DNA of 57,100 bases, filler included, from Jimgerdemannia flammicorona (lineage: Eukaryota): NCBI GenBank assembly GCA_003990765.1. It is 4 parts of 4 records of this genome, joined end to end, with 100 filler letters (N's around TTAATTAATTAA, not from the genome) between each part and the next. Parts side by side here need not be neighbours in the genome. Positions count along the whole stretch, not along the records: positions 1 to 18,187 come from RBNJ01002272.1; 3 more parts are not named here. One strand, written 5' to 3'. The notes beneath the pieces were generated by a model. It was given only the letters and a program-made list of their open reading frames with translations. It was not told the DNA's origin and made no database searches. Made by a program: the position numbers and the translations under genes. Below, piece after piece: positions 11,014-54,860 of this stretch. Each line of letters starts with the position of its first letter. Position 1 is the first letter of the stretch.

Positions 11014-11451
11014 CAGATTTTGCTCACACTGTTGTTTCAACTTCCGGAGTGTTGAAGGCTTGCCCGGCTTGATAGTAAATTTGGACGTTTAGTTCACAAT
11101 CCAAGTTTCGATTGAAGGACCGTACTACACGATGAAGGACATGGAGAACTTGGCATTAACGGTTTTTCAGATGCGACATAGGTTTTTATCGTAGGCTAGC
11201 ACATTTGCGTTGTTTCATTTTTATTGGTCTGTGTTGCATGCACACTCGGAGCCCCACAGTTTTATTCATACATTGATTGGCTGAATATAAAGACTGCTTT
11301 CTGAAAATTACCCCATAAGCGTGGTATTTGTATTTGCCACTCCCGCCAATTTCACGGTGCCACCTGGAAACGTGACCGAGCAAGCCACCGTCCTTGTCAC
11401 AAACATTCGGACTCAGCCACGCGTTTCACGCACCACTGCAGCGTACACACC

Positions 11452-12970
11452 ATGGTCCTGTATTTCACCAGCAATGGTACGGTGCTTGAAAATAAACAAC
11501 ACCTCGTTTTCTTGCTTGTAGAGTGGAAGGTCTTACACCATTCATCTGTCCCCCCAGTTGTCAACCCGCCCGCCACTATCTACATGGGCAAGGACAAGTT
11601 CGAAAGTGAGTGTTGGGTCGAAGGTGACTGGATGCGTGCGCTGGAAAGTTCCATTGAAGTTTGTCGATATGGCTTGCTTTACGATCCTGACTAATTTGGC
11701 ATCGTTTGTGGAATGCATAATAGACGAGGATCTTATCAAGTATGGGTTCCCCGAGGACGTTTGGTAAGCGCCATTTGCCCATTGTCATCCTCTAGAACCG
11801 TTAATCATTTTGGAATTTTCCCTACACTAACTTAACCTTCCAACATCCCCCATTATCTAGGGTACGCCACTTTATCCGAAATATTATCCTCCTCCCAAAG
11901 CTCTAAACGCCCTCTACGCCACTTTCAATCTCACGGATACCCTGTGCATCTCCCCCCACACCTCGTACCCGCAGTTTCACGTTGATAAGCTCTCAAGCGC
12001 CCACGTCTACCTCCGCCTCCAGCCGGGCCAGGATTGGGCCGAGATCCCCGAAGAGCTGCTCGTGGATTGCGCGCAATTAGTCAAGTCGAACAGTATCGAT
12101 GGTAGGTCTCAGGACGCCGTGGGACTCTGTTGTGCACGACGGTGGCATGTTGAACCAGTTGGGGTTTCCAAACACGCACATATAATACCAATTTGATAGG
12201 AATAGCTGGCCTTTTTAAAAATTTTCACCTCTCACGTGCCAGGCAACAAGAAAAACAACATAGCGATTGTTTACACGCCGTGGGACAACCTCAAGAAGAC
12301 GGCAGGGATGGAAACGGGGCAGGTGTCGTTCCACAAACTGGATAAGGTGGGTTCAGGTTGGATACTGGGCAGATCGATGGCGAGGCTATTCGTGGCTTGA
12401 TTGTGAACGTGGTCAATCGGCTGTAACAACGAATAATTTGCCGTACTTAACATTGGATAGGGCGCCGGAAATATAGAGAGTTATTATGTATTACCGGCTG
12501 CTTTCCTCACATTGGTATATTTCTCGTGGTAATAACAATAGGTCAAACGCATCCACGTCGAGACACGCGTCAACGCGATTGTGAACCGCCTCAACAAGAC
12601 CAAGGAGGAGCGCGAGCCCGACTTGGCGGCGGAAAAATTGGCGCGGGACAAGAAGGACCGACTCCAGAGCCGGCAGGCGGAGTTCAGCAAGGTGGGTTGG
12701 AGGTGGAAAGTGCGGTCATGGATGGCGAGATGGTTTGTCTTGAATCACATATTACGCGAAGCGTTTTCCCTAATTCGATTTCTTTTCGCACCGTGTTCCG
12801 TGGGTCGTGGTGGATGAACGTTTTAGCGGGCGGAGGAGGAGAGACAGGCCGAGCAGAAGCGGAAGGCGAAGAAGCAGGTGGATGATTTCTTCAGTGAGAT
12901 TAACATGAAGAGCAATTGGCGGGACAAGGAGGTGGAGAATGTGGCAGAGTACGAGGAGGATTTCATGTAA
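11452..12970 (+). CDS. CCDC25: CCDC25/Jlp2 family (NFACT-R domain) protein, 8 exons including a 1-nt exon
   Basis: Exons 11452-11476, 11558-11605, 11724-11763, 11861, 11975-12101, 12243-12346, 12542-12691, 12827-12970. They give [91 protein letters not shown]. Confidence 0.93.
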
Positions 12971-17436: not shown

Positions 17437-18187
17437 AATGAGGCTGCGGTGAAACCCACGGGGAAGCGGGTTGCGACCATCGTTGAGGTCGTGACCACTG
17501 ATGGTGAGAGGTGGAGGAAGATTGAGGTGCTCTGAATGGGTTCGGGGTCTTGCCGCAGATTCGAAATTGGAGGGTATGATGTGGTGTGTGCGTTGTTGTT
17601 GGACGAATGCTTGTCAATCGATGACCGGTCGGATTTGGATTCCACTTTCATGCAGGGCGACGGCGTTTGTTCATGAGCGTTGTCGTGGGTAGACCGGCGT
17701 CGCTACAGACTCAGGTTTGGCTTTGCGAGTCTCAGTTCCTGGTCCATAAATATTCCTGCATTTTGTTCTTGTTCTCTTGCTCTTTGCTTCTTTGCTATAT
17801 AGTTCATCCTTGCGATCACGACATGCACCAAGAATTCATTGTGGCGCATGATTCTATCTGCTCCCCCCTTTTTTTCTTTTTCTTCCTTTCTTCCTTGTTC
17901 TTTTTTGCATCATTGATATATTCTACTAGTTTTTACGATATGGCTATCATTAGAGACCATCGTGATTTTTGTTTTCTTTGTCGCTCTTGTGTTTTATGTT
18001 TTAGGGTATAATCGTTGCTTGTTCATCATTTTGGTTCTGCGTCTTTTTTCTGTTTTGGATTGAAAGGGGGGTTTTCGTGCCATCCGTGACCTTTTCGGGG
18101 TTCTCGTTTCATCGCCCTTCGGTTGCTTCGCCCTTTTGGTGCCCCCTCTTGCTCACATCTTTCGCGTCCAAAAAAAAAAAAGGAAAA

Positions 18188-18287
18188 NNNNNNNNNNNNN
18201 NNNNNNNNNNNNNNNNNNNNNNNNNNNNNNNTTAATTAATTAANNNNNNNNNNNNNNNNNNNNNNNNNNNNNNNNNNNNNNNNNNNN
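18188..18287. other. Artificial contig linker
   Basis: N44-TTAATTAATTAA-N44, a six-frame stop spacer. Confidence 0.98.
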
Positions 18288-18800
18288 TTTTATTTTAATA
18301 TTTAATATTATTAAGAACTACTTATAAAATAATTGAAATTAATAAAAAGAAGTATGGTAATTCAGAAAAGGCAGCTTTATTTTTCACACTAGCAGAATTT
18401 CTTTAACTGATATTTCTGAAAATATTTTAGATGAAATTTACAAATTTCTATATCTAATATAAAAAATAATTAGTAATAAAGCTCTTGCTATAGTATTATG
18501 ATTAGAGAAGGGTAAGACAGTTTCTGACTTAAAACTACAGAATGTTACTATTAATTTTTTACTTATTATCTAGTACCTTATAGATATATTTTCTATAAGA
18601 ATATTTATAATGCTAAGCTTCTTAGTCTAAAATACTGAACGATATTTTAACAACTTTTTAGTAAAAATAGTTTTGGGATTTATCAAAGTCATAAGTTAGT
18701 AGAAATACTACAAATTCTTCAAATAAAAGAAAAGAGAGAGATAAACAAATATCACCTAGCATTCAATGAATTGTTGGAAAGACTGAGAGATTAGTATTTT
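18288..18800 (+). mobile_element. Possible highly decayed hAT transposase C-terminus
   Basis: Only a TERYFN...GFI-like remnant resembling the hAT dimerisation ERxFS motif, in very AT-rich, stop-riddled DNA. Confidence 0.25.
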
Positions 18801-19241
18801 AAAATAGAAGAAACTAGAAATATCAGACATACTGACAATTTTGTAAATATCTTAGCAGCTACTTTAAATCCTATATTTATAACTTAAGATAAATAGTCTT
18901 ATTATCTTCTATTATTATTTATTTTATTTTTACAAGATTTTTTTTTTTTTTTTTTTTTTTTTTCTATTTTATAAAATTAAATTCACAACTATCTCTAATT
19001 ATAATAAGTAGCAAATTGATAATTTATAAAAATAATTCTAGTAATACTGAGTTATAATAATATATACTTTAGTAAATTCTCTTTCTTAGGAGTTTACTAA
19101 AACTTGATAGTATCAGAAATTATTTTTAGAAATTATCAATTTGCTAGCTTGCTTATTATAATTGAAGTCTCATAATAAGAATAGTTGGAAATTTAATTAT
19201 ACATCATGATATCTGATGTAATAGAGAGTAGATTATTTATA

Positions 19242-19389
19242 TTTACAATAATAATAATAATTACATTAGCTCATACACTAGCCTCATATATTAGTCTCTA
19301 GTATATAAACTAAATATAGGCTAATTAAACTAATATATGAGCTAGTATATAGCTGATATATAGTCTAATATAATTATTATTATTGTGAA
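19242..19389. repeat. ~148-bp foldback (imperfect inverted repeat), MITE-like
   Basis: ACAATAATAATAATAATTACATTAG...CTCATATATTAGT is mirrored by ACTAATATATGAG...CTAATATAATTATTATTATTGT. Confidence 0.6.
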
Positions 19390-22300
19390 CATTTCTTAGT
19401 ATAGAATAATCTATAGGTTTACTTTATATATATATATCAGAGTTATGAATATAGTTCAAACTAAAACAAAGTCTCTAAGGTAAGAACTATTATTCCAGTT
19501 GGTTTCAGTATATGCAGTATAGTTTCAGTTCAATTTATCAATTAGCTAGTTTATCTCAGCTTACCTCAGTAGTAGTATACTTAGTTAGTATACCTCAGAG
19601 TATCTTTTATTTACCACAAGGTATCTCTAGGCTAAACAATAGCTGAATAATAGCTTAGCATCAGTATTTTATATAATATTAGTCTTTAGTAGTAGCTCTT
19701 AAGCTATTTTTATACACTTTATATAAGTATATATATATTCTCTATTTACTACTCTTAAGGCTTTTTACTAGTATCAGTACTGATCTCATCTCAGATATAT
19801 TTACAAATTCCAAATACTGCTAGTTTATATATATTATAGAAGAAGTAACTTATTGTACTTTATTATAAGCATTATTTGTCTATTAATAGTATCAAAATAT
19901 ATTGATCATATATCTCAAAGACTCTCATCTACTACCTACTCCTATATTCTCCATAACTCTCTCTATTAATGATATATTAATTGAGTGTCTTCTTCTGGCT
20001 ATTATGGTATACCTGGCAGGTAACCCTCCTTTGATTCTGATGTTTATATCTTTAGCTATTTTCTTCATAATACTATTTGGCCCAGTCCTCAATACTCTAT
20101 AACCCACTACTATGCTCTCTACTATCTTATCTAGTATACTGACCATTACTTTACTAGTGTATCATAGTGAGTCTCTGTCATCCTTTATCTTAGATATAGT
20201 TTTATGATATGACTGGGTATCAGTAGATCTGCTGGCTTCTTTAGATACTGGAGACTATCAAATCTTAGCTGAATAGACTGGCTCCACCTTAATTTCACAG
20301 GTTAACATTAAGCAGAAGTCCAACTATCTCTCACCTAATTGTGATTTAGACCTCTTTCTCTAACTTGAGGCTCTTTTCAATATTCAGAGCACACTCTCAG
20401 CCCTAGGTACTATGAAACTAATAACTTATATATATAGTATATACTACTCAACTTCTAGCCTATACTATCTTCATTATTAAAATATTTAATAACTGTTATA
20501 ACTGGGTCACTTTGTAGTATTTTGACTGACAGGTCCAGACCTTGAAGGCTTTCTTCCCAGAGCTGGACATCAGTAATCCAGAGGTAATTTGATATATATT
20601 TGAGATAGTAGTTAGTTAATCAATAGCTACTCTAGTTGTATTTTAGTTAACCTATTATTATAACTCTATAGCTTTACTCATAAGCTCTAAAAACCAGTCT
20701 ATATATACTCTCTTGTGCTTTTAGTATAGAGTATAGAGATACTTATCTACTTTCTACACTCAAGTATCCCTTCAACACCTAAGATTTACTATCAAACTAG
20801 ATAATCTCCTATTATATAATAGTACTCTTAGCTCTATCTGTCAAAACTTCAATAGTTATAGCTATTATAGTAACTATGATAGATCTCATATCTATATTTT
20901 CTACTATAAATCTCATATAACCATAGTATGTTCTGCTTGCTACAACTAATCTTACTATCTCTCTATCCACTTCCAACTCTTGTACTCTCTATTACTTAGA
21001 GATCTAGTATAGTGCTCTATACTCTCATTCTGACCAGTCACTTATTTAGTATTACCTAACTGGCCTTTAAAATAGCTACTTCTATAGTAATTATTTATAT
21101 CCAGAACTTCATATAAACCTCTTATCTAATAATCTCTCTTCTGCTTTTATCAACTAAGTAGTTCTCTCTGATAACATTTTGATAAAACTTGTCACTAATA
21201 GTACCTTGACTCCTTTCTATCACTCTTTACTCTCTCTTTTGAATTCTGCCTCTTTTACAATATCTCTCTGAGTATTATTCTCAAAAAATATCTACTAAGC
21301 TCTATACAATTCAACATCTATTATTCTCTGAGAGTACCTCTATCAATAATGGTATTAACTCTGAGAAATTCTCTATCTAATATCAATCTATTTAGAAAAT
21401 CATCCAGCTTCTCATCTTTATTAGTTCTACTACTCTCTTCTGGAAGATCAATGTTGCTGATATATTTTGCATTATTCCTATTTATTAATCTGACTGGACA
21501 ATATAGAGCATCTGCTGGCTTGGTCTATTCTTCCTTAATATATATCTCCCATTGGCCTATATTCTGCTTCTTTTTCTTTATCTTTATCTTACTTATAAAT
21601 CTCTTTATATATATATACTACTAGCTATATAACCTTTCTAATTTATCTATATATCATATATCCACTTCTATACTATTGCTGCTCAGTTTGATCTTTCACT
21701 CAAGCTCTCCAAGAACATTCCCCCCTTTCTAACTATTGAATATATAAATTTTCTACTAGATATCTCTACTATAACTATCAGCCTTTTTATGAACAAATGT
21801 GAGTACATCTTTGTAGTCCTTGCTGACTGGCTTACTCTTTTCAATAATGCTCACTGTCCTTACCCATGTCTCATCATAAGGCTTAGTTACTATAAGGTTA
21901 TTTAATATATATTATTTAGATCTTACCTAATGGAAAAGTATTTTGTAATTCTATTATCTACTTTGCTATAGTATAGAGGTCTCTATATATTAGATATCAC
22001 TATCTGTTCAACTATCTCATTATCAACTTATATTAGTAATAAGACATATTGTACTTATGGACAGATTATTGCCTGCTTTTCTATTCTAATTGGTTTAACT
22101 ATAGTCTCTTTATAGATATATCAGACTCTCTCAGTACTGGTATCTGGTTTGATTAGTACTGGTGAAGTGTTCATTGAGTCTCTTTCTTTTTTGACTCAGA
22201 CAGATATGATATCTTTTAGAAAGAGATATTCACTATCTGAGTTTCACTTATACTCTGGAACCCATCTCTCTACTCTCATCAGATCATCTTATAGTATAAT

Positions 22301-23836
22301 AGCCAACCCTGTATTAATTCTTTAACCAGGAGTTATGCTTCTCACTATCCTCTCATTAATGACCTCCTTTGCTAGATTGTTATTCTTTGTCTTAATCTTG
22401 GCTTTGATATCTAAGCCCAATATATCTCTTCTGAGTCTAATCCTGCTGATTCTTTATTCCATTTTGTATACCTTCTAATCTATTTACAGGACTCACTTTC
22501 ATCCCAGGTAGTATCTCTCTTTGACTTTACAATTATCTTGATACCTACTTATATCAGTATACCTATATCTATATCAGTAGTATCTGCCCAGAAATTAACT
22601 CTCTTCTCTGTTTTCTTACTATTTGCCATATCTCCAAACTAGCTGCTTTTCTACTGACTGATGATCATTTTAGTTATTAGACTTTATAGTTAGCTAATGA
22701 GAGGAAGTCCCATACAACTATTAAGAATTACTTCTATAATCTTACTACTTATTAAACTTATTAAGTAGCTCACTGGTGGGACTCAGCTCTATAGTATACT
22801 AATGTACCATTATTTGACATTGTCCTTAAGAATATTACTGCCAACTCTCTCTAGACACTCTATCTCTGTAATATCTGCCTATTATCTATTAATATCTTTG
22901 GTAGGTCTGATACCATTTATATCTCAATACTTCATTCAGTATGATGGTTTGAGCTACTACCTGCATAGTATTCTATAGTCTGATGAGAATAGGTAAATTA
23001 ACAATCCAGAATAGTTAGGTATTTAACCTGTCCTATCAGATTTATCATCATTACCTTCAATACTACTGAGACCATTCCCTCACCTATCTATTCTAGTCAA
23101 TTTATCTATTCTATACAAAGATAGGTTTAGCTAGTAAAGTGTTTTTCAGGTTCTCTGGAGTCTTTAATTACTCTTACTTAGCAATTGATCAGATAGTTCA
23201 GGCTATATCAGTTTAATCTAATAATTCTGCCTTCTGTTTAAGGCTTATATAGCTCCTGTTTATATGACCTTTATTAATACTATCTAGTTTGTATTATCTG
23301 GCTCTGTCTTGATATCTGGGATCCACAGTCACTTCTTTTATATTAGTAGTACTACTCTTATGACAGCTGCTGGCTATTTTGATTACATTATTCAACTGGC
23401 TGGCTACTGGAAATCTTCTGTCTTTCTGCACTATATTCATCAACTTAACTATCATTCTTTACATAATGTCATATAGTAGTTGCTAAGTTCTTTAAATATG
23501 CCAGATTCTCTTCAAGGTGTATCTCTTAGACTAACTCAAGTTTGTTATAAGCAAGTTCTTATTGGAGTACCTTTCCAAGGTCTTATAGTCCTCAAACTTC
23601 TTATCTTTAAACTATCTTGTTATCTTTTAGATTGCTTGCAAGGAAGTGTATATATTGCACTAAGTAGACTAAATAGACTGACTTTATTTCAGAGGAAATA
23701 AGAGGAGTATTTATATAAAATATAATTCAATAATTGCTAAGATATAAAGCTAAATATAAATTCCAATAACTAAAATGAAATGCTAGGACAAAAAAAACTG
23801 CTAAGTTCTAGGGTCAGTACTAATAGTTATACAGAT

Positions 23837-23969
23837 TCAGAATACTGGTATAATTCAGTATTACATCAGAATGCTGGTACTGGTATAACTCAGTATTATA
23901 TCAGAATGCCAGTGCTGGCATAACTCAGTGTTACATCAGAATGCCAGTACTGGCATAACTCAGTGTAAC
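23837..23969. repeat. ~35-bp tandem repeat (about 4 units) inside the LTR; also at ~32377-32507
   Basis: TCAGAATGCCAGTACTGGCATAACTCAGTGTTACA-like units. One unit contains the 16-bp palindrome ATGCCAGTACTGGCAT. Confidence 0.85.
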
Positions 23970-23978
23970 CAAAGAACT

Positions 23979-24785
23979 TCAGAGTAGAATGTTCAAGACC
24001 ATAGGGGCTTCATTCTTGTCATCACTGAAGGAGATAAGATCTGCAAATTTATCATTATCATGCATTTTGCATGCTTCAATATCATGCAGAATGACATCAT
24101 TGCTGATGATGTCATCACATTCAGTAGTGATAGGAAGGAGGTCTGGTGCTCTCCAGTCTATGAGGTTCTCTTCTACAAAATAGGGGACAAATGTGGGGTC
24201 TTAGGGAGGTCTAATCTAGATGCTTGGGCCTTGAAATACTGAGATCAATCCTTGCAGGAATTGGTCTGGGTTGTCCTGGAGGATGGGATGCCAGAAGTCT
24301 TCTACTTCATCACTATTGAGAGTGATAGTGGACTGGGCTTCTATAGCTACCCTGGTTTCTAGTGTATTGATATAGTGAGATGACAGATCTCTGAAATCTG
24401 AGACTCTAATATACTCTAAGTTAGGGATCAACCATGGTATATGTCTGAAGATCTGATGGATCTTCTTAGCTGTCCTTGCTTCATATATATCTATAGAAGT
24501 GGTATCTTGTAACTCTTGGGGGCTGGTCTGTGGGAACTCCTGGCAGAGGAGATTTTCTATTTCATACTCCTGTCACATTTGGAGATATTCAGTAGCAATG
24601 GTGATCCTTGTTTCCATTTTATGGTGGTAGAGAATATAATGATAAGGGTCACTAGTATCTAGGTTAACACTAGGAGTCCTTCTTGGGCAGGCCCTCATGG
24701 CTCTTCTGATGTCTTGGAATATTCTTTCTTCAACTGAGATATCTTGGTGGTTTCTTGATCTTGAGGTTTGGCAAGCAGCAGGCAT
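23979..24785 (-). pseudogene. LTR-encoded ORF of unknown function (~268 aa); second copy at ~32518-33330
   Basis: The track ORFs 24573-24785 and 24216-24431 and their continuation to 23979 are all in one frame with three internal stops. The other LTR is open across two of them (track ORF 32518-33033). Confidence 0.75.
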
Positions 24786-36474: not shown

Positions 36475-36574
36475 NNNNNNNNNNNNNNNNNNNNNNNNNN
36501 NNNNNNNNNNNNNNNNNNTTAATTAATTAANNNNNNNNNNNNNNNNNNNNNNNNNNNNNNNNNNNNNNNNNNNN
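36475..36574. other. Artificial contig linker
   Basis: N44-TTAATTAATTAA-N44. Confidence 0.98.
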
Positions 36575-54760: not shown

Positions 54761-54860
54761 NNNNNNNNNNNNNNNNNNNNNNNNNNNNNNNNNNNNNNNN
54801 NNNNTTAATTAATTAANNNNNNNNNNNNNNNNNNNNNNNNNNNNNNNNNNNNNNNNNNNN
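54761..54860. other. Artificial contig linker
   Basis: N44-TTAATTAATTAA-N44. Confidence 0.98.

Follow-up and report, generated by a model that had tools for sequence, protein, structure and literature searches.

The CCDC25/NFACT-R gene of the fungus Jimgerdemannia flammicorona very probably contains a constitutive exon that consists of a single nucleotide, G11861. The gene occupies positions 11452-12970 on the + strand of a 57,100-nt stretch of DNA (NCBI GenBank assembly GCA_003990765.1; four parts of four records joined end to end), the whole of which is referred to here as the window, and it comprises eight exons. When these are joined with G11861 included, a coding sequence (CDS) of 639 nt is obtained, corresponding to 212 codons and a stop, in which the conserved motif with its Trp-Phe pair is intact. 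An earlier note on this DNA (the original prediction) had claimed that a one-base exon at G11861 restores the Trp codon TGG of this motif; assembled RNA contigs, together with a unique canonical parse of the region, now back this claim.

RNA evidence for one retained base

Part of the stretch is represented in seven public runs, the single DNA-like one among them being X7 (share 0.06), and contigs from four (X1, X2, X3 and X6) were aligned to the window. The X1 contig (669 nt, word depth 94) spans the whole coding region with no other letters and no gaps relative to the window. The X3 contig (235 nt, depth 6.7), which stems from a root metatranscriptome of another study than X1, covers exons 1-5 with a single C>T at 12023, and the X2 and X6 contigs end short of the junction. 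Between 11763 and 11974, both the X1 and the X3 contigs skip exactly 210 nt, not 211, and the mature mRNA reads GACGTTTGGTTTCAC (GTTTG-G-TTTCAC) in contigs of two studies, precisely the mRNA that had been anticipated across this junction. A frame-keeping mRNA made with other splice sites, named beforehand as the outcome that would overturn the one-base exon, was not seen in the RNA contigs. The 210-nt skip has three equivalent placements, with ends GT..CA, TA..AG or AA..GT, and the other five introns in the X1, X3 and X6 contigs are all GT..AG. Under canonical splicing, one base of the mRNA is therefore supplied by neither of the flanking exons.

The sequence at the junction is as follows (a slash marks a splice border here and below). 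Exon 3 ends with GAC GTT TG at 11763 and meets a donor, GTAAGC, from 11764; the next large exon begins with TTT CAC GTT GAT at 11975, after CCGCAG ending at 11974. Within the interval, TTATCTAG ends at 11860 and is followed by G11861 and then by GTACGC from 11862. The splice borders, the internal G, the CTAAC motif and the interval lengths (97 and 113 nt) of the original prediction all agree with the sequence, and its statements on reading frame were reproduced by translation. Joining 11763 straight to 11975 gives a frameshift (..EDVCFTLISS..) with a stop within exon 5, retention of the first interval places TAA (11765-11767) in frame after TGG, and read-through from G11861 into the second interval meets a TAA after 14 codons. 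Neither the Trp nor the Phe of the junction varies among the aligned Mucoromycota proteins (15/15); because this Trp is invariant and TGG is its only codon, G11861 is expected to be under strict selection.

Probable identity of the retained base

An exhaustive parse of 11724-12100 against the observed mRNA, with a maximum of four introns, a minimum intron length of 20 nt and GT-AG, GC-AG or AT-AC ends, gave exactly one canonical solution, namely introns 11764-11860 (intron A) and 11862-11974 (intron B) around G11861. No single canonical intron exists that produces the observed mRNA. G11861 is the only G in the interval that stands between an AG and a GT, and this base, the right one for the Trp codon, lies directly between acceptor and donor in TAG/G/GTACGC (11858-11867). 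In the six RNA-verified donors of the gene, position +3 is always R and position +5 always G, and the acceptors are all YAG; the internal acceptor TAG and the internal donor GTACGC conform to these verified sites, the donor of intron 1 being GTACGG. The remaining introns of the gene measure 81-195 nt, and the lengths of introns A and B are within these limits. CTRAY is the fungal branch consensus, and each of the two introns, judged by its length, branch-like motif and pyrimidine-rich tail, would be viable alone.

The motif YAG-G-GTRNG occurs three times in 113.7 kb (both strands of the window), including the site at 11861, and its expectation is 0.0045 per 171 usable positions of the interval. 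In dinucleotide-preserving shuffles of the 211-nt interval it appeared in 6 of 20000 and, when combined with a CTRAY 10-50 nt upstream, in just one of 20000; the bare AGGGT appeared in 401 of 20000. The motif at G11861 is thus far from chance. It is so infrequent in the shuffles because the interval is G-poor: introns A and B have G fractions of 0.10 and 0.12 and C fractions of 0.31 and 0.42, respectively, whereas G ranges from 0.20 to 0.33 in the other five introns of the gene. This shared G-poor and C-rich composition would be compatible with descent from a single older intron that the internal sites subsequently divided. An origin of introns A and B by duplication was also considered and rejected, their alignment score of 14 being reached by 178 of 200 shuffles. 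With any base allowed between acceptor and donor (YAG-N-GTRNG), a scan limited to the window gave 19 sites, both strands included. Apart from the one at G11861, YAG-G-GTRNG is present in the window at just two places, 12996 (+), which is just past the stop codon of the gene and near the end of the X1 contig, and 55989 (-).

The contigs could also be described by a single 210-nt intron with non-canonical ends, either TA..AG after TGG or GT..CA before the last G, the internal AG/G/GT then being a coincidence. Such an intron would match what the contigs contain, which is one 210-nt skip (GT..CA, with a shift of up to two places being equal) and no intermediate that uses the internal sites. However, neither TA..AG nor GT..CA belongs to an accepted spliceosomal class (GT-AG, GC-AG and AT-AC), all five remaining introns of the gene have GT..AG ends, and a coincidental acceptor-G-donor arrangement with CTAAC 30 nt upstream would be required, which arises in 1 to 6 of 20000 shuffles. 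We consider a single intron of this kind to be improbable.

Gene models of related fungi

Exon 5 has 2232 relatives, and the counts and tabulations given for them rest on the best 120 of these matches. PF05670 is present in all 120, several of which are named CCDC25, and the nearest named proteins over exon 5 come from J. flammicorona (P0004, 95%) and Endogone sp. (P0005, 86%). Jimgerdemannia belongs to the Endogonales (Mucoromycota) and Umbelopsis to another class of Mucoromycotina according to the taxonomy, which was looked up for these two genera. The junctions of the relatives were decoded from protein models produced by other groups, assuming that the pipelines concerned used canonical splice sites.

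Several of these models imply a junction that is one base short. The Umbelopsis sp. WA50703 protein (P0048) begins ..RRRPDQIWIPGRCL and continues with FHVDK, as if exon 3 had been read one base out of frame and its final ..TG joined to TTT. Four DNA solutions encode RPDQIWIPGRCL in one frame and an 11-residue peptide plus TG in the next, and all four end in TG; exon 3 of the window, read in the frame of P0048, gives a similar 13-residue peptide. Among 18 matches examined for a frameshift of this kind, P0048 is the only one that has it. In U. ramanniana (P0008), the Trp is followed by Y-D, corresponding to DNA of the form TGGTATGA.., in which the only GT starts at base 3 of the Trp codon, and two Phycomyces models (P0026 and P0031) have W-Y at the junction. 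Eight proteins have a Q directly before FHVD, as expected from CAG/TTT. In three Umbelopsis models (P0007, P0009 and P0100), the donor upstream of FHVDK immediately follows an Arg codon; Arg/FHVDK is the reading AG+G that an AG/G/GT arrangement predicts, and the window itself would give ..PPLSR/FHVDK. The normal W-F is found in transcript-derived and other models, among them the Umbelopsis-like P0017 and P0029 and P0030 from Phycomyces.

A deviation exactly at the border between Trp and Phe is present in 19 of the 33 named Mucoromycota models but in only 2 of the 22 from Dikarya. The 19 comprise seven models that lose Val/Ile-Trp (ED/FHVD), seven with extra or shifted residues and five that start just before FHVD. 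Errors of the same kinds occur in the Ascomycota Cladophialophora (P0090) and Sphaerosporella (P0117) and in the chytrid Rhizophlyctis (P0013; R/FHVDK), and part of the failures in Mucoromycota may be due merely to tiny upstream exons or to an attractive GT in the Val codon. The models from Mucor saturninus (P0036) and Absidia (P0015) have TGG followed by GT.., which would fit a single phase-0 intron. It is quite possible, and we suggest it tentatively from the decoded models, that the one-base exon is ancient and that the one-base-short junction (TG/GTA.., CAG/TTT) has been common to Endogonales, Umbelopsidales and part of Mucorales since early Mucoromycotina. An ancient one-base exon would explain the excess of model errors at this border in Mucoromycota, and lineages with TGG/GT.. 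or AG/G TTT would then represent the precise loss of intron A or of intron B.

Searches of other collections were made for the junction in related loci. In a metagenome scan (best 80 of 271 relatives), all matches were contiguous, being transcripts or intron-less genes with about 37-65% identity; E-D-(I or V)-W-F-H is contiguous in 48 of the 80, and the other 32 fall outside the search pattern. No Mucoromycota genomic locus was present among the 48 pattern-matching relatives. A search of genome contigs for the loci of relatives yielded 26 pattern stretches, none of which was confirmed, and a second search gave no matches; in viral contigs, 70 pattern stretches were found, again with none confirmed and no matches in a second search. 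The translated region 11861-12100 gave 208 matches, and no close relative extending into the intron was present among the 120 matches listed.

The J. flammicorona protein P0004 differs from the window CDS (11584-12967) at 13 of 194 residues. Twelve of these 13 changes, several of them at conserved residues, could be reached by a single C>T or G>A in the window codon. The differences look like one-directional mutation of the deamination type or resembling repeat-induced point mutation, in a diverged copy or a relative.

The models of relatives also bear on whether the assembly is simply short of one G, at TTTGG(G)TAAGC or CGCAG(G)TTTC, in which case the real gene would have an ordinary 211-nt intron and the motif at G11861 would be coincidental. 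In terms of DNA, the true sequence would then be TTTGGGTAAGC or CGCAGGTTTC, compared with TTTGGTAAGC and CGCAGTTTC under a one-base exon, and the RNA contigs would look identical. The X1 RNA contig, however, differs from the assembly by no letter and no gap over 669 nt, and the coincidence of the motif would be needed here as well. Independent genomes of another order imply an equal deficit (P0048, TG/TTT; P0008, TGG TAT GA..; Phycomyces, W-Y), and it is because of this shared one-base deficit that a slip in the assembly appears unlikely. In the Endogone model (P0005), the GT within the Val codon serves as the donor and Val-Trp is lost, the behaviour that might be expected of a predictor confronted with a strong donor that is out of frame. 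A missing G strikes us as no more probable than the single non-canonical intron.

Addition or alteration of a G at the RNA level, by editing or insertion, and an origin of the contigs from a paralogue elsewhere in the genome are the least probable explanations of all: P0004 points to the existence of a diverged copy or a close relative, but the X1 contig agrees with the window in every exon (0 of 669 nt differ) and has the exon borders of this locus, no second copy of the gene lies within the window, and single-base insertional editing of nuclear mRNA is not known in fungi.

Some points weigh against G11861 as a one-base exon. In the mature mRNA, a G from 11861 looks the same as one from 11764 or 11974, and the internal donor GTACGC is weaker than GTAAGC. 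Neither partly spliced intermediates nor lariats were seen in the RNA contigs. Support at the junction takes the form of assembled contigs, one per run, to which rare forms and splicing intermediates would be invisible, and X1 may share its organism, and perhaps its project, with the window. The possibility of an assembly slip was weighed with RNA and the models of relatives, and the latter are decoded gene models rather than DNA. Taken with the transcript and the parse, these points leave a constitutive one-base exon at G11861 as the explanation that we strongly favour.

Proposed splicing pathway

Introns A and B each appear to be complete, with a donor, a branch-like motif, a tail rich in C and T and a YAG acceptor of their own, and removal of both would leave TG + G + TTT, thereby restoring the invariant Trp. 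Short fungal introns are recognised by intron definition, and introns A and B would probably each be recognised singly in this manner. Because an acceptor and a donor that are one base apart cannot both be engaged at once, we infer that the two introns are removed stepwise. Intron A would probably be removed first, since it is transcribed earlier and has the better donor (GTAAG compared with GTACG); its removal would create TGG/GTACGC, from which intron B could then be spliced. The reverse order would be chemically possible too, with CTAG/GTTT still a valid acceptor. The site at G11861 would act like a recursive-splicing ratchet that retains one base. Were the G to be skipped, a frameshift to an early stop would follow, and a switch coupled to nonsense-mediated decay through the G-skipped form is only a possibility. 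The contigs contain neither a G-skipping nor an intron-retaining form, but forms of low abundance are lost in contigs.

Gene structure and surroundings

Assignment to the CCDC25/NFACT-R_1 family (PF05670) follows from a significant profile match of exon 5 alone (E value of 6.7e-10; 39.9 bits with a cut-off of 29.8). Exon 6 alone scored 29.3 bits, slightly below the 29.8 cut-off; the Pfam scans were run per exon. RNA coverage of exon 1 begins at 11448 in the X1 contig and at 11450 in the X3 contig. Coordinates of all features are collected in Table 1.

Table 1. Exons, introns and candidate splicing signals of the J. flammicorona CCDC25/NFACT-R gene (positions in the window)
Feature	Position	Strand	Description
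Exon 1	11452..11476	+	25 nt, ATG start; gene model; joined to exon 2 via GT..AG in contigs
Intron 1	11477..11557	+	81 nt, GTACGG..CAG; spliced out in X1 and X3
Exon 2	11558..11605	+	48 nt; gene model and RNA contigs
Intron 2	11606..11723	+	118 nt, GTGAGT..TAG; spliced out in X1 and X3
Exon 3	11724..11763	+	40 nt; 3' end TG gives Trp codon bases 1-2
Intron A, 5' of one-base exon	11764..11860	+	97 nt, GTAAGC..CTAG; from the sole canonical parse
Candidate branch site CTAAC, intron A	11827..11831	+	A at 11830, 30 nt before acceptor
One-base exon G (very probable)	11861	+	Third base of Trp codon TGG; from mRNA, unique parse and motif rarity
Intron B	11862..11974	+	113 nt, GTACGC..CAG; from the sole canonical parse
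Candidate branch site CTCAC, intron B	11931-11935	+	40 nt before acceptor; predicted from sequence
Exon 5	11975..12101	+	127 nt, NFACT-R domain core; covered by X1 and X3
Intron	12102..12242	+	141 nt, GT..AG; spliced out in X1 and X6
Exon 6	12243..12346	+	104 nt; gene model and RNA contigs
Intron	12347..12541	+	195 nt, GT..AG; spliced out in X1 and X6
Exon 7	12542..12691	+	150 nt; gene model and RNA contigs
Intron	12692..12826	+	135 nt, GT..AG; spliced out in X1 and X3
Exon 8, coding part	12827..12970	+	Stop TAA; X1 RNA contig extends to 12996

The 5' parts of the last two introns (12344-12384 and 12689-12729) are 73% alike over 41 nt, both starting with AAG/GTGGGTT, and the local alignment score was reached by one of 200 shuffles. 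Duplication of an intron, or a mobile origin common to both, may have left this likeness. The gene lies wholly within the first of the four pieces of the window, which are about 18.2 kb each with the last one shorter. The joins between pieces (18188-18287, 36475-36574 and 54761-54860) each consist of 44 N, TTAATTAATTAA and a further 44 N, TTAATTAATTAA being a six-frame stop linker. The region 18001-24000, in a different joined piece, is very AT-rich, with a GC content of 0.24-0.32 compared with 0.43-0.55 around the gene.

Significance

Gene predictors usually miss one-base exons, and the CCDC25 gene offers a concrete example of automatic annotation failing on a conserved gene. The remedy for the gene model is a CDS join that includes a one-base segment at 11861. 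With this gene, the documented range of one-base exons, previously plants and Dikarya, would come to include an early-diverging fungal lineage as well as a gene of the housekeeping type. Two introns of about 100 nt would also make a compact natural substrate for studying the order of intron removal and the way in which the spliceosome copes with an acceptor that is separated from the following donor by one base. Should the junction prove to be conserved across Mucoromycotina, the arrangement would have been stable for a very long time and could serve as a marker for intron loss; should the one-base exon be as ancient as tentatively suggested above, it would be by far the oldest known.

Comparison with known systems

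Two other arrangements in which splicing proceeds through closely spaced sites are ratchet sites and stwintrons. A ratchet site consists of juxtaposed AG/GT, that is, a zero-length exon of which no base is kept, and a stwintron consists of an outer intron, one splice signal of which is interrupted by an inner intron. Both resemble the CCDC25 junction in the adjacency of an acceptor and a donor, and also in the two ordered steps proposed for that junction, the first of which builds the substrate of the second. The CCDC25 junction is distinct from a ratchet site in that one G stays in the mRNA, and from a stwintron in that introns A and B are each complete (GT..AG), abutting and not nested; a nested solution is excluded because it would require an outer intron with T11765 as its first base or A11973 as its last. 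U12-type introns were likewise considered and set aside, GTAAGC and GTACGC being unlike the RTATCCTT donor consensus.

One-base exons themselves have been described in plants and fungi. For the single-nucleotide exon of Arabidopsis APC11, reporter constructs in which the base had been mutated or deleted provided the proof (Guo and Liu 2015, PMC4674806). APC11 and the CCDC25 gene have in common a constitutive one-base exon between two GT-AG introns and mis-annotation in databases; APC11 is a plant gene in which the base is an A and the proof came from reporter mutation (PMC4674806), whereas the evidence presented here comes from sequence and RNA contigs.

The closest parallel is Fusarium CYP621A, in which the one-base exon is a G between AG and GT (AGGGT) and RNA reads extend across the joint (PMC12940212). 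Its authors suggest that a cryptic AGGGT rescued a one-base loss (Nelson and Syed 2026, PMC12940212). The two cases share a fungal nuclear gene, an AGGGT core within a conserved motif and flanking phases that differ by one base, as well as RNA across the joint, canonical sites and an interval of about twice the usual intron length (PMC12940212). They differ in that CYP621A encodes a P450 and the base is the middle one of a Gly codon, compared with the third base of a Trp codon in a CCDC25/NFACT-R gene; furthermore, the Fusarium case belongs to Ascomycota and its motif was aligned in 24 sequences, whereas the site described here belongs to Mucoromycota and is represented by a single DNA sequence.

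In Coprinopsis cinerea, long-read annotation has yielded 13 one-nucleotide exons, distributed over 13 genes (PMC12230235). The original prediction had called one-base exons very rare; they are indeed rare, but they are published, and with 13 annotated in Coprinopsis alone the wording needs to be softened. The Coprinopsis exons are also fungal, were also found via transcripts and likewise break gene models if missed, the difference being that a genome-wide list is available there (PMC12230235). The CCDC25 site is probably not among these 13, because Trp and Phe are contiguous in the DNA of Agaricomycete-like open reading frames of the family ('YAWPQDVW FHVDK'). In the literature searched, no link of CCDC25 or DUF814 to micro-exons was found among the matches listed. 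The phenomenon itself is therefore published, and what the J. flammicorona gene adds to it is a gene family and a fungal phylum that are new for one-base exons.

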